A stretch of 64,000 bases of DNA from an uncultured Phycisphaerales bacterium (GTDB lineage Bacteria > Planctomycetota > Phycisphaerae > Tepidisphaerales > Tepidisphaeraceae). The translations under genes were made by a program, and so were the position numbers. The DNA is taken from NCBI GenBank assembly GCA_963755915.1, contig CAVWLP010000003.1:800001-864000 (forward strand). Reading direction: 5' to 3'. Shown one piece after another: positions 1 through 10,376 of this stretch; within the stretch, counting starts at the first letter, position 1, and each line of letters begins with the position of its first letter. Under the pieces are notes generated by a model, which saw only the letters and a program-made list of their open reading frames with translations, made no database searches and was not told the origin of the DNA.

Positions 1-939
1 ATCCAACGTCATCGTCCCCAGCCCCTGTGCCTTGGTGAGATCGTTTTCAATCAGCGGCTTCTGCGCCGCCGCCGCCTCCCCAAACGTCTGCAAATCCATG
101 TCCTGGTTCAGCCCATGCATCACCGAATTCACCGGGTCCGGATTCCCCAGATAATCCTTCCACCCCTCCCGGCAAGCCGCCGCCATCGCCTTCACTTCCT
201 GCGGGTGCGATCGCCACAGCTCCCCTTTGCAGATCAGCAATGTCGCATAAGGATTAAACCCCTCATCCGCGATCAAAAACACCTGCGGATCGCCCCCCTG
301 GTGCCGCGCCAATATCGGCTCGCTCGTCACATAACACTGCTGCGAATAATCCTTGCTCGCCATAAACTGTGCGATGCCCCCATCATAATTCGCCACCTTC
401 ACCCTCACCGGCGCGAACCGCTTCTCCAGCAGCGTCAGCCACGCGTTCGGCTCGGCCAGCAGATACCCGTCGCTGTTAAACACATCCGCGATCGAAGTAA
501 ACCCGCGCGACTCATGCACCATGATCCCCTGCGGAAACGTCTGATACACCGCAAAAATGCCGATCACATCCGCATTCTGCCGGCGGGCGATCAGTACCTG
601 GTCGGAGGTCGACGTCGCGAATTCCGTCTTTCCCGTCGCCACGAGCTGCCACGTATCCGCCCCTTCCCCGGCCGGCGTGATCGTCACATTCAACCCGTGC
701 TTGGCAAAAGCCCCATCCTGGCTCGCCGCGTAAAACCCCCCAAACTCCGGCTCCGGTTTCCAGTCGAGCGTCAACTGCACCGCCGTCGCACTGGGAGGCG
801 TCGCGCTGGGCCGCGTCGCGCTCGACGCGTTTGCATTTGGCCCCGGCGCCGATGAGTCACTCGACGGCGCACTGCTTTTCGCGCACCCGCCGATCAGCAA
901 CCCGCAGAAAACCACGCCCACCGTCAATCGCCAGATCAT
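1..939 (-). CDS. ABC transporter substrate-binding lipoprotein, NMT1/THI5/SsuA-like (3' end runs off the window)
   Basis: Translated by hand from the ATG at 939: MIWRLTVGVVFCGLLIGGC (lipobox), then VQLTLDWKPEPEFGGFYAA, typical of NMT1-family binding proteins. Lies downstream of the permease and ATPase. Confidence 0.85.
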   Translation of the reverse strand, partial: MIWRLTVGVVFCGLLIGGCAKSSAPSSDSSAPGPNANASSATRPSATPPSATAVQLTLDWKPEPEFGGFYAASQDGAFAKHGLNVTITPAGEGADTWQLVATGKTEFATSTSDQVLIARRQNADVIGIFAVYQTFPQGIMVHESRGFTSIADVFNSDGYLLAEPNAWLTLLEKRFAPVRVKVANYDGGIAQFMASKDYSQQCYVTSEPILARHQGGDPQVFLIADEGFNPYATLLICKGELWRSHPQEVKAMAAACREGWKDYLGNPDPVNSVMHGLNQDMDLQTFGEAAAAQKPLIENDLTKAQGLGTMTLD

Positions 940-994
940 TCTCAGCCTTTCCGTCTACCGCACCGCAGTTTATCACGTCGATCGCCAGCGAATT

Positions 995-1023
995 GTTTAG
1001 CCGCGACCCGAAGGGAAGCGCGT
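995..1023. repeat. REP-like dispersed repeat GTTTAGCCGCGACCCGAAGGGAAGCGCGT
   Basis: Intergenic. A second copy with 1 mismatch in 29 lies at 11357-11385. Confidence 0.75.
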
Positions 1024-1066
1024 CTTACGTTCGCACTCCCATACGCGCCACACGATTCGCAACTGT

Positions 1067-1852
1067 TCATTCATCCAGCTCCGAAGCATGCCAATGGCGA
1101 AGCAGCAGTTTAGCCGCCGCATTTATCGCCGCAAACATCGCCAGCCCCAGCAGCGACGCAATCAGCACCGCCGCGAAAACCAAATCCGTCCGTCCCTGCT
1201 TTTTCGCCGAAACGATCCTCACCCCCAGCCCCTCCCCCGGCCCAAACAGCCCCACCAGAAATTCCCCCACCACCGTCCCAATCACCGCCAGCCCCGCCGC
1301 CACCCGCAGCCCCGTAAAAATGCTCGGCAGGGCGGATGGCAGCTTCAATTTCCATAGCCGCGCCCACCTCCCCGCCCCATACAGCCGAAACAAATCCTCC
1401 AGCGCAGGATCGGTCGACATCATCCCCGCCAGCGTATTGGCGATCACCGGAAACACCGAAACGATAAACGCCGACAGCGCCACCGCCCCCAGCCCCGGCC
1501 CGCACCAGATCATCAGCAGCGGCGCGATCGCCACGATCGGCACCGTCTGAAAAAAAACTGTGTACGGATAAATCGCCCGCCGAACCAGCGGCCACGCCGA
1601 CAAAATCATCCCCGCCCCAACCCCCAAAACCCCGCTCGCGAAAAATCCCATCAGCGCCGCCTCCGTCGTCGTCCAAAGCGACGCCGCCAAATCCCCCCGG
1701 CGCAATATCATCACCCTCGCCACCGCCCCCGGCGTCGGCAGCAAAAATGGCTCGTTCAATGCACTCGCCCCAACATGCAGCGCAATCACCGCGGCGATAA
1801 ACACCACCACCGGCGGCCAAATCGCGCCGAAAATCGATCCCGTTCCCTTCAA
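1067..1852 (-). CDS. ABC transporter permease, SsuC/TauC type
   Basis: Several TM segments; QTVPIVAIAPLL, LPSALPSIFTGLRVA and VVGEF motifs. Confidence 0.9.
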   Translation of the reverse strand: MKGTGSIFGAIWPPVVVFIAAVIALHVGASALNEPFLLPTPGAVARVMILRRGDLAASLWTTTEAALMGFFASGVLGVGAGMILSAWPLVRRAIYPYTVFFQTVPIVAIAPLLMIWCGPGLGAVALSAFIVSVFPVIANTLAGMMSTDPALEDLFRLYGAGRWARLWKLKLPSALPSIFTGLRVAAGLAVIGTVVGEFLVGLFGPGEGLGVRIVSAKKQGRTDLVFAAVLIASLLGLAMFAAINAAAKLLLRHWHASELDE

Positions 1853-2598
1853 GCCTTCCCCCCAGATTCCCCTTTCGCCAGCGCTTCATAAATCTTCCGC
1901 GTAATCCCCCCGAATTCCCCTGACGACCGCACCCCCGCCTCCCGCTTCTCCCCCAGCCCAATCTCAATATCCGCCGCAATCCGCGCCGGCCGGCTCGTCA
2001 GCACCACCGCACGATTCGCCAGAAACGTCGCCTCCGCCGTCGAGTGCGTGACGAAAATCACCGTCATCCGGTGCCGCACCCAAAGATCCCGAAGCTGCTC
2101 ATCCAGCCGCTGCCGCGTGATCTCATCCAGCGCCGCGAACGGCTCATCCAAAAGCAAAATATCCGGCCGCGTCACCAGTGCCCGCGCCAGCGAAACCCGC
2201 ATCTTCATCCCCCCCGAAAGCTGATTCGGAAATCTCTCCAGCGCCTCCTCCAGCCCCACCTGCCCCAGCGCCTCCCGCGCCGACCCAATTCTTTCCGCCT
2301 TCCCCACCCCCATCAATTCCAGCGGCAGCGCCGCATTCCCCACCACGTTCCTCCACGGCAGCAGATGCGCATCCTGAAAAACATAAGCAATCTTCCCCGC
2401 CCCCTTCTCCACGGCCCCATGACTCGCCCGCTCCAGCCCCGCGATAATTCTCAGCAGCGTAGACTTCCCACACCCCGACGGCCCCAGCACCGCCACAAAT
2501 TCCCCATCCCCAATCCCCAGCGACAAATCCTCTATCGCCACCACCCCGTTCTCAAAAACCTTCCGCAAATGATCAATTCGCATCGCCCCGGCGATCAT
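1849..2598 (-). CDS. ABC transporter ATP-binding protein, SsuB/TauB type
   Basis: Walker A GPSGCGKS, signature LSGGM, Walker B LLLDEPF. Confidence 0.95.
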   Translation of the reverse strand: MIAGAMRIDHLRKVFENGVVAIEDLSLGIGDGEFVAVLGPSGCGKSTLLRIIAGLERASHGAVEKGAGKIAYVFQDAHLLPWRNVVGNAALPLELMGVGKAERIGSAREALGQVGLEEALERFPNQLSGGMKMRVSLARALVTRPDILLLDEPFAALDEITRQRLDEQLRDLWVRHRMTVIFVTHSTAEATFLANRAVVLTSRPARIAADIEIGLGEKREAGVRSSGEFGGITRKIYEALAKGESGGKA

Positions 2599-2603
2599 AT
2601 CGT

Positions 2604-2626
2604 GTAGCCGCCGAGCTTGCTCGGCG
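2604..2626 (+). repeat. GTAG-type REP hairpin
   Basis: GTAG followed by the palindrome CGCCGAGC-TT-GCTCGGCG. A related copy with compensatory changes lies at 5575-5621. Confidence 0.7.
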
Positions 2627-2800
2627 CTCTCCGCACTTTTTCCCCTGTCTTTCCCTGAGCTCGAAACTCCTCAGCGCCTGTCACGGGGCGCGCCAAAACC
2701 AGCCAGGGCGGGGCGCTTCAAAACCGGCCAATGTGCTGACGTATTCTATACCGCATCCGTTCTATCCGACGCAACTGTTCCTTGAGTTATTGGTCCCCGT

Positions 2801-3691
2801 TCACGCCGTCTGGCCGGCGGATACCCCCACATCAGAAGACAACGGCGGCTCTGTCACGGTGTCTTCCGGGGGGGAGCACCCTTCATCGCCGGCGGTACTC
2901 CGCCGTCCTTTTGGATTTGTCTTTTCCGGTGTCCCGGATTGGCCTGCCGTGAGCGAAGTCGAATGGCCCCCATGCCGAAGGCGGTAGCTCTTGCCGGTGA
3001 TGTTGATGATCGTGGCGTGCTGCAGGAACCGATCCAGAATGGCCGTGGCCGCCGGCACGTCGCCGATCAGCTTGGCCCAGTCCTCCAGTGGACGGTTGCT
3101 GGTCATCATCGTCGAGCGGTTCTCGTGCCGGCGCATGACGATCTCCAGCAGGCATTCGCCGCTGCGCCGCGGAAGCTGCTTCATTCCCATGTCGTCGATG
3201 ATAAGCAGATCAGGCTTGAGATACCGGGCCAGCGTCTTGTCCTGGGCTCCCAGATCCTCGTCGCCTAAAAAGTCGCGGGCCAGGTCGAAGATGGATCGGT
3301 ACAGGACCACCAAGCCGCTCTTGATCGCCTGGTGTCCGATGGCCTGGGCCAAAAACGATTTGCCCACGCCGGGCGGACCCAGCAAGAGCACGTCACGTTT
3401 GTCACGAATGAACTGGCCGGCGGCCAGATCGTGAATCTGTTTGCGTTTGATGGAGGTGTTGAAGGAGAAGTCGAACTCGTCGAGGTTTTTGGTGTCGCGG
3501 AACATCGCCGCCTTGACGCGCCGGCCGATCTGCCGGCTGGATCGGACGTTCAGTTCATCCTGAAGGATCAGTTCCAAAAACTCACTGTGGTCGAGCCGAT
3601 TGCCGGCCGCCTCGCTCAGGCGAACTTCAAGGCTGCTCGCCAGACCTGAAAGCCGAAGTTGCTTGAGCGTCTGCATCAACGAAGGTCTCAT
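2801..3691 (-). CDS. istB: IS21 helper ATPase IstB
   Basis: LDEFDFSF, Walker A GPPGVGKS, Walker B LLIIDD, TSN, AILDR and GKSYRLR motifs. Overlaps the istA stop. Confidence 0.95.
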   Translation of the reverse strand: MRPSLMQTLKQLRLSGLASSLEVRLSEAAGNRLDHSEFLELILQDELNVRSSRQIGRRVKAAMFRDTKNLDEFDFSFNTSIKRKQIHDLAAGQFIRDKRDVLLLGPPGVGKSFLAQAIGHQAIKSGLVVLYRSIFDLARDFLGDEDLGAQDKTLARYLKPDLLIIDDMGMKQLPRRSGECLLEIVMRRHENRSTMMTSNRPLEDWAKLIGDVPAATAILDRFLQHATIINITGKSYRLRHGGHSTSLTAGQSGTPEKTNPKGRRSTAGDEGCSPPEDTVTEPPLSSDVGVSAGQTA

Positions 3692-5373
3692 GGGGTGGAC
3701 TCCCTTCGGCTCTGCTCAGGGCAGGCCTGTAAAGGTTGTGCGGCAGGCAAAGCCTCCGCTTGGGTGATTGCGTCGCGTACGAACTGTCCGTAATCGGCCA
3801 GTCCGCGGATGATTGGATGTTCCTGAACAAACTCGAAGTGTTGTTGAACCGGCGCGCCGTTTTGGTGTTCGATGAGCTGCCGCAGGGAGCGCAGGTGATA
3901 CGCGCCATGCCCCAGAGCAATCTCGCAGGCTCGTTCCACGGCCGGTCGCGGCTGCTGATTGGCCAGCGACAGCAGCCCCATCAACACGCGCACGCCTTCG
4001 ATGCCGCGATGCTGAAGCATTGACTGCGCCCACTGCGTGGCGTGCGGCCCGATGCATTCGATCCGCTGGAGAAGCCAGGTCGTTCCACGCTCGATGCCGC
4101 TGATCTTCTCCGGCAGGATATGGGCGTCTTGCGTCGAGAACCTGCCCGGCGGACGCTGCGCGTGCAGAGCGATCGCACGCATCTTCTGATCGAACAGCCG
4201 GACCGTGCGCCCGTCCCACCGCGCCCAGACCCGCTGGCCCAAAAACTCCGGCGGGACCGAATAGTACGCCCCCTTGATCTCCACGTGCCCGTCGCGGTGA
4301 ACACTGCGCAACGCCTCGGTGAAAAGATCGAATCGCACCGGCGGCAGAGCCAACAGTGCCGGCTTCTCTACCTGCTCGAAGACTTCCTTCACCTGCCGCC
4401 GCGTCGTGCCGTGGATGCGCGTGTCGGCCACGCTCTTCTCCCACGTCAGCAGATGCGCGTTCTGATCCGAGAGCGAGGCGAATTGCCGGCCTTTGAGAGC
4501 ATTGCTCTTCACATAGCCGATGCCCCGCTCGATCTTCCCCTTGTGCCGCGGCGTGTACGGCTTGGTGGGCAGAATGGCGATTCCATAATGTTCGGCGAAC
4601 GACCGGACCTTGGGACACAACTCCGCCTCGAACCAGTCCGCCCGCGTCACCGCCGCGCGAAGATTGTCGATCACCAGCGCTGACGGCATCCCGCCGAAGT
4701 GCGTAAAGGCATTTTCCAGACAACGCAGAAAATCATCGGTCGTCTGCCGCTCCACCGCCTCGGCGTACCCCTTGCGGCTGTGGCTCAGCACAATGCGGAA
4801 GACCCAGGTTGCTTTGCGTTTGCCGTCAGGACCGACCAGGGGCGCACCCCGGCCGAAGTCCACCTGCCCTCGGCTCCCGGCTCGCATTCCATCCGGCGCA
4901 CGCTGTAATAGCTGCCGGCATAGCCGTGATCGCTGGAGATGTCTTGATAAATCCGCTGGGCCGTCAGCCCGGCTTCCAACTTCTGAACAATGACCTCACG
5001 CCAGGGCGATGCCGTACTGACCGACCCGATGGGCGCGCCGGATAACCCGGTGGGCGCGCTCTCCGAGCCGCCTGCGGCGAGCACCGTCGAGCCGCCTGCG
5101 GCGAGCACCGTCGAGCCGCCTGCGGCGAGCACCGTCGAGCCGCCTGCGGCGAGCACCGTCGAGCCGCCTGCGGCGAGCACCGTCGAGCCGAGGGGCGCGC
5201 TGGCCGGTTTTGAATCCGATCCGGGCACCGCAGGATCGCCGCCCGACAACCGGATGTGGCGTCCAACGGTCTCCCGGTGAACGCCGAGTTGGCGGGCGAT
5301 GTTCCGATTGGACCAGCCGCTGCGCAAGTGCCAAAATTGCTTGTACTTCCGCCATCTTGAGTTGATTGGCCAT
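3688..5373 (-). CDS. istA: IS21 transposase IstA (two frameshifts, ~5320 and ~4870)
   Basis: N-terminal HTH (MANQLKMAEVQAILAL..GWSNRNIARQLGVHRETV), DDE motifs QVDFG, VIDN and KGKIERG, C-terminal YYSVP. Split over three frames. Confidence 0.85.
5065..5190. repeat. 24-bp tandem repeat, 5.25 copies, inside istA
   Basis: GAGCCGCCTGCGGCGAGCACCGTC x5 plus GAGCCG. Encodes (STVLAAGG)n in frame. Confidence 0.95.
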
Positions 5374-5574
5374 CCCACCATTGGCTTGCGGCAACCGCCG
5401 AAAGCCAAGGTCGATAACCCAATCTCCTGTGCCTCAAAATGGCCGGTTTTGGCGCGCCCTCAATTGGCCGGTTTTGCGCCCCATGACACAGCGCCCCGCC
5501 GCCGAAAGCACCGGAGGTGCTTGGGCGGTACTCCGCGAAACGTGGGCCGGAGGCCGTCCCTAACTTCTCCCCGT

Positions 5575-5621
5575 GTAGCCGCCGTGCTTGACTTCGGTGA
5601 GCTGTCTCGAACCGCACGGCG
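5575..5621 (+). repeat. GTAG-type REP with a 24-bp element inserted in its loop
   Basis: GTAGCCGCCGTGCTT-[GACTTCGGTGAGCTGTCTCGAACC]-GCACGGCG, compared with the uninterrupted copy at 2604. Confidence 0.7.
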
Positions 5622-5864
5622 CTTTCCCGCCAAATACCTCAAGGCCGCCCCCGACCGTCACAAGGCCAGCCAAGTGCCACCGCGGCGGAACCGCGTTTTA
5701 TATTCGAGTCAACGCCTCTTCTCGTCCCCCAAACCATAACCGAAAATACTCTTCCTTCTTTTTACGATGTAAATCCGACCGCTTCGCTCCAATAAATGTG
5801 GGGAATCCCACTCATAAATTCTTCCTCTTTCTTGGCATCTTGGCGTCTTCTATGAGCCGAGCCT

Positions 5865-5870
5865 TGTCAA
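5865..5870 (-). promoter_or_regulatory. Outward-facing -35 box TTGACA at the IS110 3' end
   Basis: Perfect TTGACA on the minus strand next to the inverted repeat. In the circular junction GAAACT, a weak -10, would lie 17 nt downstream. Confidence 0.5.
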
Positions 5871-5879
5871 GGGGCGTTG

Positions 5880-6175
5880 ATCGCTCATGCGGTCGATTGG
5901 GTGAGCCTTCTATTCAGTGCTCTCGCCTGGCGGCGGGCCTATTCAACTGTACAAATGGCCAGCCCTATTCTTAGCGGCAAGCTTTGAAGCTTAAGACGCC
6001 AACCGGGGTCTGGCCTTGCTCATTCAACCTGCACGAACGCGTCAATTCCACTTCACTTCAACTCTACTCAATCCCCTGCACAGAAGACAACGGCTTTCTG
6101 ACACGGTGTCTTCCGGAGGGGAGATACTCCATCGCCTGTACCGACTTGTCGGGACAGTCATCGCCTTTTCGATTT
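5880..6175 (-). ncRNA. Putative bridge/seek RNA of the IS110 element (boundaries approximate)
   Basis: Stem GGCCAG..CCC/GGG.CUGGCC (5957-6015) encloses two guides matching the insertion site, separated by an AAGCU-UCAA-AGCUU hairpin. Confidence 0.8.
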
Positions 6176-7219
6176 TCAAGTGGCCGCCGTCAGCGATCGC
6201 TGGGGTTCTCTCCATCGGGTTCCGTCCCGCAGCATCGCCCACAGCTTCACCAGTAATCTCCTGGCTACCGCAACAATCGCGATCTTCTTGCGCTTCTCGC
6301 TGTCACGTAGAACCCTCTCGTACACGTCCTTCATCCACGTATTGCGATGAACCCCCAGCCACGCCACCTCCACCAGCAACTCCCGCAGCAGCGCGTTGCC
6401 TGCCTTGCTGATCCGCCCCTGGCGATCGCTGTCGCCGCTCTGCCAGCGCCGCGGCGTCAGACCCACGTAACATCCCACCTGACGTGCATTCTTGAATCGC
6501 CTGGGATCATCAATGATCACCGCCACCGCCTCGCTCAGCCGCGGACCAACGCCGGGCACCTCCTGCAATCGTTTCACCGCTTTGTTGGCCTGGCCCAACT
6601 CCTGAAGCTTGCTTTCGACAGTTTCGATCTGCTTCTCCAGGTGCTCCAGTTGCGCCACCTCACAACCGATCTGAAACAGCCACAGATCTTCCGCCGATGC
6701 GGCCGCTGCTTCCTTCCTCATTTCCTCCAGTCGCGCTTTCGTCCACGCCTTGGTCGCCGAGGGCAAATACAAACCCTGCCGCTCGTAGATTGATCGGATC
6801 GAGTTCTTGAGCGCCGTGCGGCGATCCACCAGGCCGTGTCTGTATTCAATCAATGAACGCCACTGCCGAACCGATGCCTTGGGCACGTGCACCGTCGGCA
6901 GCGAATCCATCTCCGACATCGCCGCCATCTTCAGCGCGTCTTTACGATCACTCTTCTCCTTCACCGTCTTCCAGCGCCAGCGTTCATCGTTGCCATTGGC
7001 CACCTGGACGGGAACATTGTTCCGCTCCGCCAGATCACAAACCCATCCTGCCGCCGGACCGGCCTCGATGACCAGTCGATCCGGACGCACCCGCTCGAGT
7101 AGTTTTTGCACCTCGTGGGCATTGGTGCCGATCTTGCCGAACGTTCTTTCTCCACCGCCGGTGACATAATCCACAAAAACGCTCTTGTTCTTTCCCAGGT
7201 CCAAAGCGAGAATTCGCAT
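6176..7219 (-). CDS. IS110-family DEDD transposase/recombinase
   Basis: ALDLG, VIEAG and KSDRKDA (DEDD tetrad); VPGVGP, YVGLTP..QSG (catalytic Ser region), ISKAGN, AVARRL. AAGGA RBS before the ATG at 7219. Confidence 0.95.
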   Translation of the reverse strand: MRILALDLGKNKSVFVDYVTGGGERTFGKIGTNAHEVQKLLERVRPDRLVIEAGPAAGWVCDLAERNNVPVQVANGNDERWRWKTVKEKSDRKDALKMAAMSEMDSLPTVHVPKASVRQWRSLIEYRHGLVDRRTALKNSIRSIYERQGLYLPSATKAWTKARLEEMRKEAAAASAEDLWLFQIGCEVAQLEHLEKQIETVESKLQELGQANKAVKRLQEVPGVGPRLSEAVAVIIDDPRRFKNARQVGCYVGLTPRRWQSGDSDRQGRISKAGNALLRELLVEVAWLGVHRNTWMKDVYERVLRDSEKRKKIAIVAVARRLLVKLWAMLRDGTRWREPQRSLTAAT

Positions 7220-7330
7220 TGCCGAGTCCTTTCTCAAAAAAGACGTTTGAGCGACCTACGCGGTACGCTCGTTCATACTTGGGGCATTTTGACCCCGTTC
7301 ACGTCCCGAGAAAGGCTCGGCTTCATAGTT

Positions 7331-7371
7331 TCTTGGCGGTTATAAGATTTTTAACCGCCAAGACGCCAAGA
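7331..7371. repeat. Remainder of the palindromic target of the IS110
   Basis: The rebuilt empty site TCTTGGCGTCTTGGCGGTTA is the exact reverse complement of 7352-7371 TAACCGCCAAGACGCCAAGA. Confidence 0.85.
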
Positions 7372-7404
7372 GCGCAAGAAAGAAGCAGATAAAAAGAAAT
7401 TTAT

Positions 7405-8516
7405 TTAGAGCGTGCGCTTAAACAGCAACGTCGCAAACCCCAACGCCAGCAGCGAAAAAATCGTCAGAAACGCCAGATCCTGCCAGATCGCTATGAGCCC
7501 TGTGTTCTTGAGGATCAGCTCCTTAAACCCATGCACGGCATACGTAAACGGATCGACCACCGCAATGCACTTCATCCAGGTCGGAAACGACTCCTGCGGA
7601 TAAACCGCCCCGCTCGGAAAATACAAAACCGTATTCAGCATCCCGAAAATCGCCCGCGGCACCAGCGGATCGTTCACCCGCACCATGATCAAAAACATCA
7701 TGCTGATCAGCGCCATCGACGTGGCAACCACCAGAATCATCAATTTCAACATGCGGACCGGATTAAGCGGGTCCGGTATACCCGCGATGAGCGAACCGAT
7801 GGTAACCAGAACCAGCCCCGCGATGATCGCCTTGGCAGCCCCCGCAAAGGTGAAACCAAGGATCAGCTCAACCTTGCGGATTGGCGTCACGAGATATCCT
7901 TCGTGCAGCCCGCGCGCCTTATCGTCGATGAAGATGATCCCACCGCCGATCATCGCCGAGACGAAGATCGACAGCGTGATGATCCCCGGCAAAAGGAACT
8001 GGATATACGGCACATACGGATAGACCTCCACGACGTTCAGCGTCGCATCCGCTGTCGTGCGCCAGGCACTTGCGGACCATTGTACGTCTGAAGCATCGAC
8101 CCAATACTCGCTTCCAGGGCATCGGATGAGAACTGGTCCGTGTTATCGACCACCACCGCGATCTGCGGATTGGCGCCCGCCAGGACTTTCCGCGAAAAAT
8201 TGGGCGGAATGTTCAGCACGCCCTGGATCTTCCCATCCCGCAAATCGCGCACCGCCACCGCATTGTCGGAGTAAGGGATGGTGTCGAAAGTCCGGGCATT
8301 CGCCGCGATCGCCTGGCACATCTCCTTGATCTTGATCGCCGGAACCCCGTGGTCCTGGTCCACGACCCCCACCTTCATGTTCTTGATCTTCCCCCCGAAC
8401 GCATACCCCAGCACGATGAGCTGCACCAGCGGCATGATCATCGAGACGATCATCAGCACCGGGCTGGCCTTAAATCGCCGAAGGTCGCGCTCGATGATGG
8501 CCCAGATTCGATGCAT
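7405..8516 (-). CDS. ABC-2 type exporter permease (frameshift ~8050)
   Basis: ORFs 8037-8516 and 7405-8031 are the two halves: VGVVDQD extracellular domain, then FLLPGII, YFPSGAVYP and DPFTYAV. Confidence 0.88.
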
Positions 8517-8521
8517 GCTCG

Positions 8522-9509
8522 TTATCCTCGGCGAAGTATGAACGGACTGTTCGCCGCGTCCGCCGTCTGCAGGGCGTCGCGAAGCTGGTGCCCCGTGTAA
8601 TAAACGAAAACGTCGTCCAGCGTCGTGCTCTGCACCGACAGAGAATTGATCCCCACCTTGTTGTCCCGCGCCGTCTCCAAAAGTGCCACCGTCGTTCGCG
8701 GACCGTTATTGGAAGAGATTCGGTAAATATTTTCCTCCTGTTTCACTTCCGCCACTTCCGGAAGCCCCTGGAGAATCCCCAGCCAGTTCGCCGGCGCCGG
8801 AGCAACTGACCTCAAGAATATTTTTCCCAGGGATCGAGGCCTTGAGCTTCAGCGGCGAATCGAGCGCGACCAGCTTGCCGTGATCGACGATGGCAATCCG
8901 ATCGCAAAGCTTGTCCGCTTCATCCATGTAATGGGTGGTGACGAGAATCGTCAAATCCCGCTGGCTTTTCAGCCGCGTGAGCATCTCCCACACCGACACG
9001 CGCGACACCGGATCGAGCCCCGTCGTCGGCTCGTCGAGGAAAAACAGCCGCGGCTCGTGCACCAGCCCGCGGGCGATTTCCAGCCGCCGCCGCATGCCAC
9101 CGGAGAAATTTTTCACCGGCTTGTCCGCCCACTTTTCCAGGTCCACGTCCTTGAGCAGTTCCTCGATCGTTTGTTGCCGTTTCTCGCGGGGAATCCCGTA
9201 AAGTTTCGCGAAGATGCTCATGTTTTCCCTGGCGCTGAGGTCCTGGTCGGACGTCATCGCCTGCGGAATCACCCCGATCGACTGCCGCACGTCGTTCGCC
9301 TGCTGAACGATGTCGAACCCGTTGACCCGCGCCTTCCCCGAGGTTGGCGGGACCAGCGTCGTCAGCATTCGGATGAGAGTCGATTTACCGGCGCCGTTGG
9401 GCCCAAGCAGCCCGAATACTTCCCCCTGCTCCACGGAGAAATTGATCGCATCGACGGCGGTGAAGTCGCCGAAGCGCTTGGTGAGGTTTTCAACTTCAAT
9501 CGCCAGCAT
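8522..9509 (-). CDS. ABC exporter ATP-binding protein, DrrA-like (frameshift ~8795)
   Basis: GPNGAGKS, FSGGMRRRL and LDEPTTGLDP. The C-terminal TLDDVF segment is in the second frame. Confidence 0.9.
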
Positions 9510-9512
9510 GGA

Positions 9513-10376
9513 TCAGGGCTTCGCGAGAGGGACGGTCACGTACGCCGTCATGCCGACGGCAAGGGCGCGGTCGGAATTGTCGCACCGAATGCGGACTTCA
9601 AACGTGCGGATATCCCGCTTGGTCCGGCTCACGTCGCGCTGGGTGGCAAAGTCGGCGTCGACTCCCCGGTAAAAAACCGTCCCCTCACGCGTGGCCCCCG
9701 AAGGGAGCGTAACCATAAGCTTGTCCCCGAGCCGAATCCGGTCGATATACGTCTCTTCGACGTCCGCCCGCACCCAAAGGTCGTCCTGGTTGATCAGCGT
9801 AACGATCGCCTGCCCCGGATTGACGACTTCCCCCTCAAGCGCCGCCCGCGTGTCCACGATCGCATCCATCGGCGCGGTGATATCGGTGTAACTGAGCATC
9901 ACCTCCGCCTTTTTCTTTTGCGCCGCCGCCCCCTCCACCTGCTTCTTCAGCGATTCCACCCGCGCCACTGCCGCATCGTAGTTCGACTTCGCCTGCTCGA
10001 AATCCTGCGTCGAAACCGCCTGCTGCTTGTACAGCGGCTCATCGCGCTCGTAGGTGGCCTTGGCAAATTCCAGGTCGGCCTGCGCCTCCTTCACCTGCGA
10101 CGAGATCTGCTGCTGCGCCATGTCGTAATAAGCCAGATCGGCCTCCTGCGTAAGCGGCAGGATGACCGCCAGCGTCTGGCCCTTTTTAACCGTGTCCCCT
10201 TCCTGAACCAGCAGTTTCTGAATCTGCCCCTGAATTTGCGCACTGACGATGACTTCATCGGTAGTAACGATCCCGGTCAGGTTAATTTCGCTCGGCTCCC
10301 GTGTCGCGAAATAGTAGATCACCCACGCAGCGAGCGCAGCCAGCACAATCAACAGAGGAACTTTGCGCTTTTTCAT
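9513..10376 (-). CDS. HlyD-family periplasmic adaptor
   Basis: N-terminal TM, lipoyl-like LVQEGDTVKKGQ, coiled coil, ITAP..GEVVNPG. Confidence 0.9.
   Translation of the reverse strand: MKKRKVPLLIVLAALAAWVIYYFATREPSEINLTGIVTTDEVIVSAQIQGQIQKLLVQEGDTVKKGQTLAVILPLTQEADLAYYDMAQQQISSQVKEAQADLEFAKATYERDEPLYKQQAVSTQDFEQAKSNYDAAVARVESLKKQVEGAAAQKKKAEVMLSYTDITAPMDAIVDTRAALEGEVVNPGQAIVTLINQDDLWVRADVEETYIDRIRLGDKLMVTLPSGATREGTVFYRGVDADFATQRDVSRTKRDIRTFEVRIRCDNSDRALAVGMTAYVTVPLAKP

Follow-up and report, generated by a model that had tools for sequence, protein, structure and literature searches.

Insertion sequences (ISs) of three unrelated families, IS21, IS110 and IS3, carry a structured module that, judged by sequence comparison, is a derived copy (paralogue) of a conserved host small-RNA gene. 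Two copies lie in the window, the whole stretch of 64,000 nucleotides of DNA that was analysed, where the original prediction had noted a shared motif at the 3' ends of two unrelated ISs. The module is homologous to the host sRNA, is restricted to ISs, occupies a fixed position and orientation within them, has a covarying secondary structure and stands as an island of conservation between diverged elements. With about even confidence, its role is most likely exerted at the 3' end of transposase transcripts, as an RNA element that may mimic the host sRNA in masked form.

Two Copies of the Motif and the Elements That Carry Them

The expected likeness of two sites in the window was borne out by three comparisons. 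Pairwise alignment showed positions 2833-2890 and 6081-6136 to be near-identical, BLAST-type scoring gave 84% identity over 56 query bases, and a gapped stem-loop pattern found 2835-2866 and 6083-6113 as its sole matches in the 64 kb, while matching none of 100 dinucleotide shuffles. Both sites possess the predicted GAAGACA/UGUCUUC stem and the outer pairing of a C-run with a G-run. The orientation of the motif relative to the transposase genes is also alike, since istB (2801-3691) and the IS110 transposase gene (6176-7237) are both encoded on the minus strand. The adjoining hairpins (2890-2905 and 6136-6157) are indeed of unlike sequence; the further statement that they precede the motif holds in the sense of the genes only, as they follow it on the plus strand.

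The first site belongs to an IS21-family element, IS21A (2679-5488, minus strand), which is delimited by terminal inverted repeats and by the BLAST breakpoints of its copies at 2679 and 5488/5489, and which is present in 31 copies in the genome. Its istB open frame (minus strand; IstB_IS21, E 4.9e-66) holds the IstB domain in residues 8-240 of 296 and continues through the module, and the conservation profile of istB falls past this domain and climbs again at the module. The istA gene (3688-5408, minus strand; Pfam domains rve, Mu-transpos_C_2 and HTH) consists in the window copy of two overlapping frames (3688-4887 and 4785-5408), and most other IS21A copies are unlike the window copy at 4893-4898. 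The module, placed at 2824-2909 (minus strand) by structure, alignment and a covariance-model match, is composed in gene sense of GGAC (2909-2906), hairpin 1 (2905-2890), a purine-rich linker (2889-2877), the C-rich stretch (2876-2867), the stem-loop (2866-2835) and a G-run tail (2828-2824).

The second site lies in an IS110/IS1111-like element (about 5850-7328, minus strand), whose limits were drawn from a junction comparison of its nine copies. This element has subterminal inverted repeats at 5855-5865 and 7312-7322 and is inserted in a REP-like palindrome. Its transposase gene matches Transposase_20 (E 2.1e-24) and DEDD_Tnp_IS110 in Pfam, and the motif begins 40 nt past the stop codon. The same three kinds of evidence place the module at 6073-6160 (minus strand), with hairpin 1 at 6157-6136 in gene sense, followed by a linker, the C-rich stretch (6123-6114), the stem-loop (6113-6083) and a G-run tail (6076-6073). 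The 3' noncoding region past the module (5850-6072, minus strand) contains blocks that are also kept in module-less relatives (L160, L161 and L163). It is presumed to be the guide (bridge/seek) RNA region, by analogy with the location of the IS1111-group bridge RNA given in PMC12288879.

Architecture and Conservation of the Module

The motif forms the core of a module of ~90-105 nt in which a variable hairpin is followed by a C-rich stretch, then an invariant stem-loop and finally a G-rich tail. Among 127 distinct variants, 55 distinct hairpin-1 stems occur at one shared position, in agreement with the suggestion of a structured RNA element with covariation, and the C-rich stretch is nearly invariant among the IS copies. 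In 104 of 118 cases the G-rich tail pairs better with the C-rich stretch than does control DNA taken 24-40 nt downstream, with mean energies of -9.1 kcal/mol for the tail and -4.4 for the downstream control window. This control replaced one with shuffled tails, which was dropped because shuffling keeps the G content and makes the comparison weak. Between IS21 types, identity is 0.80-0.93 at the module as against 0.23-0.53 just upstream and about 0.5 downstream; the module is an island of conservation between these diverged elements.

The GAAGACA/UGUCUUC stem is lengthened by further pairs into a GC-rich stem-loop of the intrinsic terminator type. On the sense strand of the IS copies no U-tract follows directly after the stem, which is succeeded by UG and then a G-rich run, so that canonical intrinsic termination is not expected for these copies; a scan also found no minus-strand terminator at either window module. 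Two protein-coding explanations were rejected. A C-terminal extension of the preceding protein is incompatible with the location of the module past the stop codon in IS110 and with one-base length differences that shift the frame among IS21 variants, and across variants the position of the stop codon varies between -98 and +80 with respect to the stem end. For a small ORF starting in the linker, neither frame nor start codon is conserved. The proposed comparison with Rfam, whose families include self-cleaving ribozymes and known IS-associated motifs, revealed no matching family: a search of window positions 1-10000 with Rfam 15 gave a chance match only, to sR28 (18.7 bits against a threshold of 39) and off the motif, and none was found at the stand-alone host gene or at 16 distant homologues.

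Distribution among Insertion Sequences

All 51 modules of the window genome reside in ISs or an IS remnant (31 in IS21A, 9 in IS21B, 1 in IS21C, 9 in IS110 and 1 in an IS3 right-end remnant), and a module lies downstream of 9 of 9 IS110 transposase matches and 41 of 42 IstB matches. The lone stand-alone copy of this genome is a conserved sRNA gene. Metagenomes contributed 116 loci that were kept, 104 of them with an upstream sense ORF, and 92 of these ORFs are of the IstB (33), IS110 (32) or IS3-type rve (27) kind. The module is positioned between the end of the last transposition gene and the IS right end, always sense to that gene. The predicted tie to unrelated IS families is thus upheld and gains IS3 as a third family. 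A common dispersed repeat of the REP/BIME-like type without IS enrichment is ruled out by the 51 of 51 copies in ISs or the IS3 right-end remnant. The motif is therefore neither an IS-independent repeat, nor devoid of covariation, nor a member of an Rfam family, the three outcomes to which the original prediction had been exposed.

The module is not found in IS110 relatives with 73% and 67-68% identical transposases, which retain the conserved 3' blocks, nor in one IS3-type and two other IS110-type families of the window genome; because these relatives and families are without it, the module is dispensable. One genome holds six copies that consist of the module and an IS1111-like right end with variable 5' limits, and the order 3' blocks, module, right end is seen in a genome other than that of the window. 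Identity of the module with the IS110/IS1111 bridge (seek) RNA was considered and rejected, as it also occurs after IstB and IS3 OrfB and is missing in the IS110 relatives just mentioned.

A Conserved, Putative Host Small-RNA Gene and Its Relationship to the Module

The stand-alone gene putatively defines an undescribed small-RNA family. Its alignment reveals a 5' hairpin, promoter-like boxes, an unpaired C-rich stretch and a terminator hairpin with a U-tract downstream. The boxes resemble TTGAC-N17-TAAGAT and lie upstream of the gene, where they are visible by alignment; a simple promoter scan flagged no promoter at the window genome's own stand-alone copy. The C-rich stretch is invariant, unpaired and anti-Shine-Dalgarno-like, and ends in CUCCCCUCCGG. 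A covariance model matches the gene in 125 of 141 family genomes, nearly always as a single copy, and a strict pattern finds exactly one copy in 60 of the 141. Other Phycisphaerae families hold diverged forms with strong stem covariation. Class-wide, compensatory changes affect 9 of 13 pairs of the stem and 99.6% of cells are paired, a level reached by 0 of 500 shuffles, and the C-rich stretch is invariant.

A leader or attenuator of a neighbouring gene was rejected on the grounds that the stand-alone gene keeps its neighbours only in part. Its upstream position is occupied in many genomes by an ORF with acyltransferase-like motifs, recognized by eye, which is absent there in the window genus. 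Sites with 11-mer complementarity to the C-rich seed number ~80 and are scattered through the genome, compared with a rough chance estimate of ~50, and include no multi-copy or IS target. A literature search returned no paper on such an sRNA in the phylum Planctomycetota. The stand-alone sRNA is a candidate translational regulator.

The C-rich stretch and stem-loop are common to the stand-alone and IS-borne forms when these are aligned. With a covariance model built from 41 stand-alone genes only, the IS copies reach 27-45 bits, in every case on the sense strand; in the window, the host-sRNA model gives 34.1 bits at 2834-2876 for the IS21A module and 43 bits at 6082-6124 for the IS110-like module (45.2 bits for a wider region). 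The IS copies keep the hairpin position, C-rich stretch, family-specific stem and AGGAC leader of the host sRNA, and capture is read as having proceeded from host to IS because they carry the family-specific stem sequence. They differ from the host sRNA in having no promoter-like site and in the exchange of the U-tract for a G-rich tail able to pair with the C-rich stretch. This link to a host gene had been overlooked in the original prediction.

Transcription, Strand and Translation

Scanning both strands around the two window modules revealed no promoter-like site. Two metatranscriptome runs, available as contigs, contain 6-7% of the sampled words; the contigs are only 85-95% alike over 2680-7330 and hence derive from relatives. 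One of 976 nt spans 2680-3583, module included, and another of 548 nt ends at 2832, the stem base. Since the contigs show neither strand nor true ends, they provide no evidence of module expression.

Folding energy was uninformative as to strand, the sense fold having the lower energy for 8 of 18 IS variants and for 4 of 41 host genes. Several stem substitutions produce C.A mismatches in sense RNA and G.U pairs in antisense RNA, and inferring the strand from them was abandoned as circular, since in the search patterns one arm was constant and the other could vary by purine changes alone; an unbiased count in hairpin 1 yielded 7 C.A/A.C and 2 U.G cases, too few for significance. In IS21 the istB frame crosses the whole module, and in 25 of 33 cases its stop falls 29-32 nt past the stem; several IS3 frames likewise cross the module. 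Ribosomes would thus melt the structure.

Proposed Role and Alternative Explanations

In the preferred explanation, the module would form the 3' end of the transposase transcript, in which the G-rich tail and C-rich stretch would pair to form one long imperfect hairpin. Located ahead of the IS right end, this hairpin could serve as a 3'-end-forming, exonuclease-blocking or insulating element, and the module might also be set free as an RNA that resembles the host sRNA but has its seed masked. Counted against this explanation were the missing sense U-tract, the frames that cross the module, the antisense-compatible substitutions, the plus-strand terminator-like score in IS21A and the dispensability of the module.

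A more active function, considered rather unlikely, is that the module, once excised from the transposase transcript, functions in trans as the host sRNA would, or competes for its targets or a protein partner; the IS would then be coupled to, or interfere with, the host translational control network, and the G-rich tail would be a mask lost by 3' trimming. Such mimicry is consistent with retention of the whole host-sRNA body (AGGAC leader, hairpin position and C-rich stretch) instead of the terminator stem alone, with the near invariance of the C-rich stretch, and with the 51 IS copies facing a single host gene in the window genome. However, predicted folds of most variants have the seed paired, the IS copies possess neither a promoter-like site nor a U-tract, and the complementary 11-mer sites are close to the chance estimate, with no multi-copy or IS target among them. 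It is improbable that the antisense product is the functional one, with the long hairpin, hairpin 1 and a U-rich run of the plus strand stopping transcription that enters at the IS right end, or with the host sRNA being sponged by an RNA of complementary sequence. Although hairpin 1 followed by TCCTTTTGGA scores as a plus-strand terminator in IS21A, the scan found no such site in the IS110 copy, and many variants show only a weak U-rich run or one that is shifted. An antisense RNA would be unaffected by ribosomes that cross the module in translating istB or OrfB, but no promoter-like site lies between the IS end and the module, and only in sense RNA does the stem have its invariant G.U closing pair. 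The G.U-compatible substitutions that favour the plus strand are biased by the search patterns, and the count of 7 versus 2 is not significant.

A small chance is assigned to the view that the module is useless to the ISs and spreads selfishly, by recombination between them or within MITE-like derivatives. The same position and orientation in three families with different transposition machineries argue against this, as does the conservation island between diverged IS21 types, whereas patchy presence among related ISs and the six copies joined to an IS1111-like right end, with their variable 5' limits, would be expected of a hitch-hiker; a precedent is MITEPpu9, as proposed for ssr9 with ISPpu9 (PMC12288879). 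The tiny mobile unit of the original prediction is a loose fit only: the module is not bordered by copies of the IS ends, neither terminal repeats nor duplications were found, and flanks like those of a MITE or MITEPpu9 are absent from the IS110-like element, where the only IS-end inverted repeat is 5855-5865/7312-7322 and nothing borders the module. The companion suggestion, that the module is a processing signal setting the 5' end of the IS110 guide RNA, is most implausible. It suits the IS110-like module, which is preceded by the transposase stop and followed by the conserved 3' blocks, yet fails as a general role, given that the module also occurs in IS21 and IS3, families without guide RNA, that the module-less IS110 relatives keep the 3' blocks, and that in one other genome these blocks come before the module.

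Implications

The stand-alone gene would add an undescribed sRNA family that occurs almost throughout one Phycisphaerae family, nearly always once per genome, and has diverged forms in other families of the class, and a derivative of this host regulatory RNA is carried at one shared position by mobile elements with different transposition machineries. An IS-borne sRNA module was already known for one IS (ISPpu9/ssr9). The sharing of a host-derived module by IS21, IS110 and IS3, families for which circular intermediates and junction promoters are described in PMC12288879, suggests selection at the 3' end of transposase transcripts. A bolder and rather doubtful proposal is that the three families took up, and passed among themselves, a seed-masked copy of a conserved anti-Shine-Dalgarno-type host sRNA that may be global in reach, thereby tying transposase expression to the sRNA network or tapping it. 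If this were true, an unmasked copy could compete for the partner protein or targets of the host sRNA, and dozens of IS copies might jointly alter host translational control.

Comparison with Known Systems

REP/BIME-type 3' hairpins stabilise upstream mRNA, and in lambda sib retroregulation an extended hairpin forms on read-through transcripts only. The module resembles both in placing a long GC-rich hairpin 3' of a coding region; they, unlike the module, are not known to be sRNA-derived or IS-restricted. Among base-pairing sRNAs, RoxS/RsaE and 6C have C-rich seeds and Shine-Dalgarno targets (compare PMC5419742, PMC6486639). The host gene is similar in that an invariant unpaired C-rich stretch adjoins a terminator hairpin of freely covarying sequence, and differs in showing no sequence relationship to these sRNAs and no Rfam match, while in the IS copies the C-rich stretch is paired to the G-rich tail. 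Regulatory RNAs derived from the IS200 transposase, namely a 5'UTR-derived sRNA and art200, are likewise encoded within an IS and can act beyond the element; these originate at the 5' end of a single IS family and are not known to be host-sRNA copies (PMC5435999, PMC4513863).

A further known system compared is ISPpu9 with ssr9 (MITEPpu9) of Pseudomonas putida KT2440, in which an IS110-family element inserted in REP palindromes is accompanied by a small-RNA unit downstream of the transposase. In both systems the unit lies 3' of an IS110-family transposase with a REP palindrome as target, is optional in related ISs and unneeded for transposition, and also has copies away from the transposase (PMC12288879). 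That study describes ssr9 as lying between copies of the IS end boxes and as moving with that one transposase; the unit possesses a promoter of its own and is complementary in sequence to an IS-encoded antisense RNA (PMC12288879). The module, by contrast, is without such boxes or a promoter-like site, occurs in three unrelated IS families, and has as its stand-alone relative a conserved, single-copy host gene.

The Module and Its Host Elements

The original prediction held that one structured motif of ~58 nt lies both in the istB 3' tail and just behind an IS110 transposase gene, and closer comparison bears this out. The motif is the core of a unit of ~90–105 nt, here called the module, which consists of a hairpin (hairpin 1), a C-rich stretch, a stem-loop, and a G-rich tail. 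Pairwise alignment places the similarity at ~2833 to 2890 and 6081 to 6136, and genome-wide comparison gave 84% identity between the two copies. The stem-loop pattern matched twice in the window (2835–2866 and 6083–6113) and in none of 100 dinucleotide shuffles. The first copy adjoins an IstB_IS21 open frame (2801–3691) and the second an IS110-family transposase gene (6176–7237), both on the minus strand. As had also been proposed, the predicted fold of both copies sets a GAAGACA/UGUCUUC stem within C-run/G-run pairing, and a hairpin lies beside each, the two hairpins being unrelated in sequence. The motif matched no Rfam family. The module is real, structured, restricted to insertion sequences (ISs), and absent from Rfam.

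The first copy lies inside an IS21-family element (2679–5488, type A or IS21A), delimited by terminal repeats and the breakpoints of its copies, and the second belongs to a ~1.48-kb IS110/IS1111-like element (~5850–7328), delimited by comparison of its nine copies. In each case the motif comes after the last gene and before the IS right end. The IS110-like element has subterminal inverted repeats, and all nine copies (L001–L009) occupy one identical point of a REP-like palindrome (window 5831–5849 and 7329–7380), in which TTCTTGGCGCTCTTGGCGTCTT and its complement flank an A/T-rich centre. This shared insertion point implies sequence-specific targeting of a host repeat, putatively of the guide-RNA type. 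Within the 3' noncoding region of the element (5850–6072), which had no match in Rfam, blocks such as GTACAGTTGAATAGGCCCGC, CTGAATAGAAGG, and the right end CTTGACAAGGCTCGGCTCATAG are kept in relatives with 67–90% identical transposases; the region probably encodes an IS1111-type guide RNA.

The 5' part of istA in the IS21 element contains a 24-nt tandem repeat of about five units (5064–5190), and BLAST breakpoints suggest that unit number varies among the 31 IS21A copies. In the window, istA is divided into two overlapping frames (4785–4898), and most other IS21A copies, together with metatranscriptome contigs of relatives, have extra sequence at 4893–4898 (39 nt in one contig). Because of the split gene and the extra sequence elsewhere, the window's copy is probably defective.

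Association With Three IS Families

In the source genome, a covariance model and a regular expression both gave 52 copies: 31 in IS21A, nine in a second IS21 type with ~60% identical IstB, one in a third IS21 type, nine in the IS110-like element, one beside a BrkB/YihY-like gene, and one stand-alone copy on contig 3 (786203–786286), 14 kb before the window. The copy beside the BrkB/YihY-like gene was assigned to an IS3 remnant on the basis of its alignment to the IS3 right end of a relative. The module follows 9/9 IS110 transposase matches and 41/42 IstB matches. The source genome is rich in mobile elements, and the module was absent from its other repeat families (loci L352–L358); the types without it include an IS4/IS5-type element (43 copies), a group II intron (13), an IS3-type element (7), two further IS110-type elements (6 and 4), an IS481-type element (5), and two of IS630 type.

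Across 141 Tepidisphaeraceae genomes (the family), the strict pattern found the IS-type form in nine, with 1–7 copies each outside the source genome. In the species collection, 25 of 26 matching stretches were the IS-type form, the other being a chance match in Paenibacillus. Metagenome contigs yielded at least 120 matching stretches, of which four were dropped as coding look-alikes, leaving 116 among the matches listed. An open frame of ≥90 residues ended near the module on the sense strand, i.e., in the direction of transposase genes, in 104 of these 116; the frames encode IstB (33), IS110 transposase (32), IS3-type integrase-fold proteins (27), or products with no Pfam match (12). The IS share of 88% among the matches listed also measures constancy of orientation, as sense-strand frames were the ones examined.

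A module copy of diverged sequence lies downstream of an IS110 transposase with only 46% identity. The module is not essential: it is missing from IS110 relatives that have 73% and 67–68% identical transposases and still possess the conserved 3' blocks. Among the three IS21 types, identity is 0.80–0.93 at the module vs. 0.23–0.53 just upstream and about 0.5 downstream, a peak that indicates selective constraint or exchange between elements. One genome (G042) has six short units (L123, L132, L137, L142, L147, and L150) in which the module is joined to an IS1111-like right end. Their 5' limits vary, and in the longest of them the module comes after guide-RNA-like blocks; such units may represent non-autonomous derivatives.

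A Conserved Stand-Alone Gene for a Putative Small RNA

A pattern search of one genome per species found the stand-alone version in many Tepidisphaeraceae and Phycisphaerales assemblies. On the strand equivalent to transposase sense, 42 stand-alone loci have in common TTGAC-N17-TAAGAT-like boxes, a short leader and 5' hairpin, the invariant stretch GGCGCAUUUUCUCCCCUCCGGAAGACA, and a 10-bp stem-loop followed by a U-tract. The gene occurs exactly once in 60/141 family genomes by the strict pattern, including 12/12 of the genus, and in 125/141 by the covariance model, nearly always as one strong match; these counts include the unpublished genome G062, without which they are 59/140 and 124/140. In a sample of the class Phycisphaerae, 66/151 genomes had a homologue match, some families being complete (8/8, 14/14, and 6/6) and others having none. 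The C-rich stretch UCCCCUCCGG is invariant in distant class homologues, and the terminator stem varies with compensation: in an alignment of 21 rows, two of them partial antisense self-matches, both-sided changes occur at 9/13 pairs and 99.6% of cells are paired, values reached in 0/500 shuffles. The U-rich tail was kept in 15/15 further matches examined outside the family. No Rfam family matched the gene or its distant homologues, and a literature search found no report of such an sRNA in Planctomycetota. By its sequence features, the stand-alone copy is a conserved, predicted small RNA gene representing a new candidate host sRNA family, a by-product of this analysis.

Synteny is only partial. 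In many family genomes the gene lies downstream of an open frame with acyltransferase-like motifs (identified by eye), and in the source genome (L033, L189) between genes for a 2-oxoacid:ferredoxin oxidoreductase beta-like protein and a GspE/PilB-like ATPase, judged by eye from translations. In 18/39 stand-alone loci a conserved GCCGATGGG box precedes the sRNA hairpin by ~100 nt and lies ahead of the -35-like box; it may be bound by a regulator or mark where an upstream element ends. In other Phycisphaerae families (L217–L231), several genomes contain two or three paralogous copies each, all with U-tracts, and many of these lie 150–400 nt downstream of a large same-strand open frame of 600–790 residues.

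The IS copies retain a short AGGAC-type leader, a hairpin in the equivalent place, the C-rich stretch, and the family-specific stem sequence. They depart from the stand-alone gene in having a linker rich in purines, a stem with a conserved mismatch, and a UG-plus-G-rich tail instead of the U-tract; a scan of the window modules found no promoter-like site. The host family is old, its stem is family-specific, and the IS copies bear this family's stem, which together mark the IS-borne form as a derived version of the stand-alone gene and the direction of capture as host to IS. In 104/118 distinct variants the C-rich stretch pairs more strongly with the G-rich tail than with DNA 24–40 nt further downstream (mean -9.1 vs. 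-4.4 kcal/mol), a test on related sequences whose significance is therefore overstated. Across 127 distinct variants, hairpin 1 shows 55 different stem sequences; by the criteria used, 25 of the variants have no clear hairpin.

Possible Modes of Action

The module would make up the 3' portion of the transposase transcript. We infer this from its covarying RNA-type structure, its constant placement and orientation behind the last IS gene, its homology to an sRNA whose direction is marked by a terminator as well as promoter-like boxes, and its lack of a promoter-like site of its own. The long hairpin formed by C-rich stretch, stem-loop, and G-rich tail may form or protect the transcript 3' end, or shield the IS right end from read-through. 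Circular or tandem junctions of IS3, IS21, and IS110 elements create a promoter from abutted ends, according to PMC12288879, and such promoters could make insulation at the module site useful. As a second possibility, the transposase transcript might release an RNA that resembles the host sRNA but has its seed masked.

Several findings count against a sense-transcript role. The IS copies have no U-tract in the sense direction, and the istB frame and several IS3 frames continue through the module. Hairpin 1 and a U-rich run on the IS21A plus strand resemble a terminator, and a few substitutions are compatible with G·U pairing on the plus strand only (the stem part of this signal being a search-pattern artefact). 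The module could therefore instead act in antisense, as a terminator against inward transcription or as an RNA complementary to the host sRNA.

Relation to Known Systems

By analogy, the host sRNA may work like the C-rich-seed sRNAs of Gram-positive bacteria. The nearest known case to the module is ISPpu9, an IS110-family element in which the sRNA unit ssr9 lies downstream of the transposase; ssr9 is dispensable for transposition and has copies elsewhere in the genome (PMC12288879). Compared with ssr9, the present module has neither flanking IS end boxes nor a promoter-like site, is common to three IS families, and derives from a conserved host gene. It belongs among the IS-associated sRNA modules, a known class.
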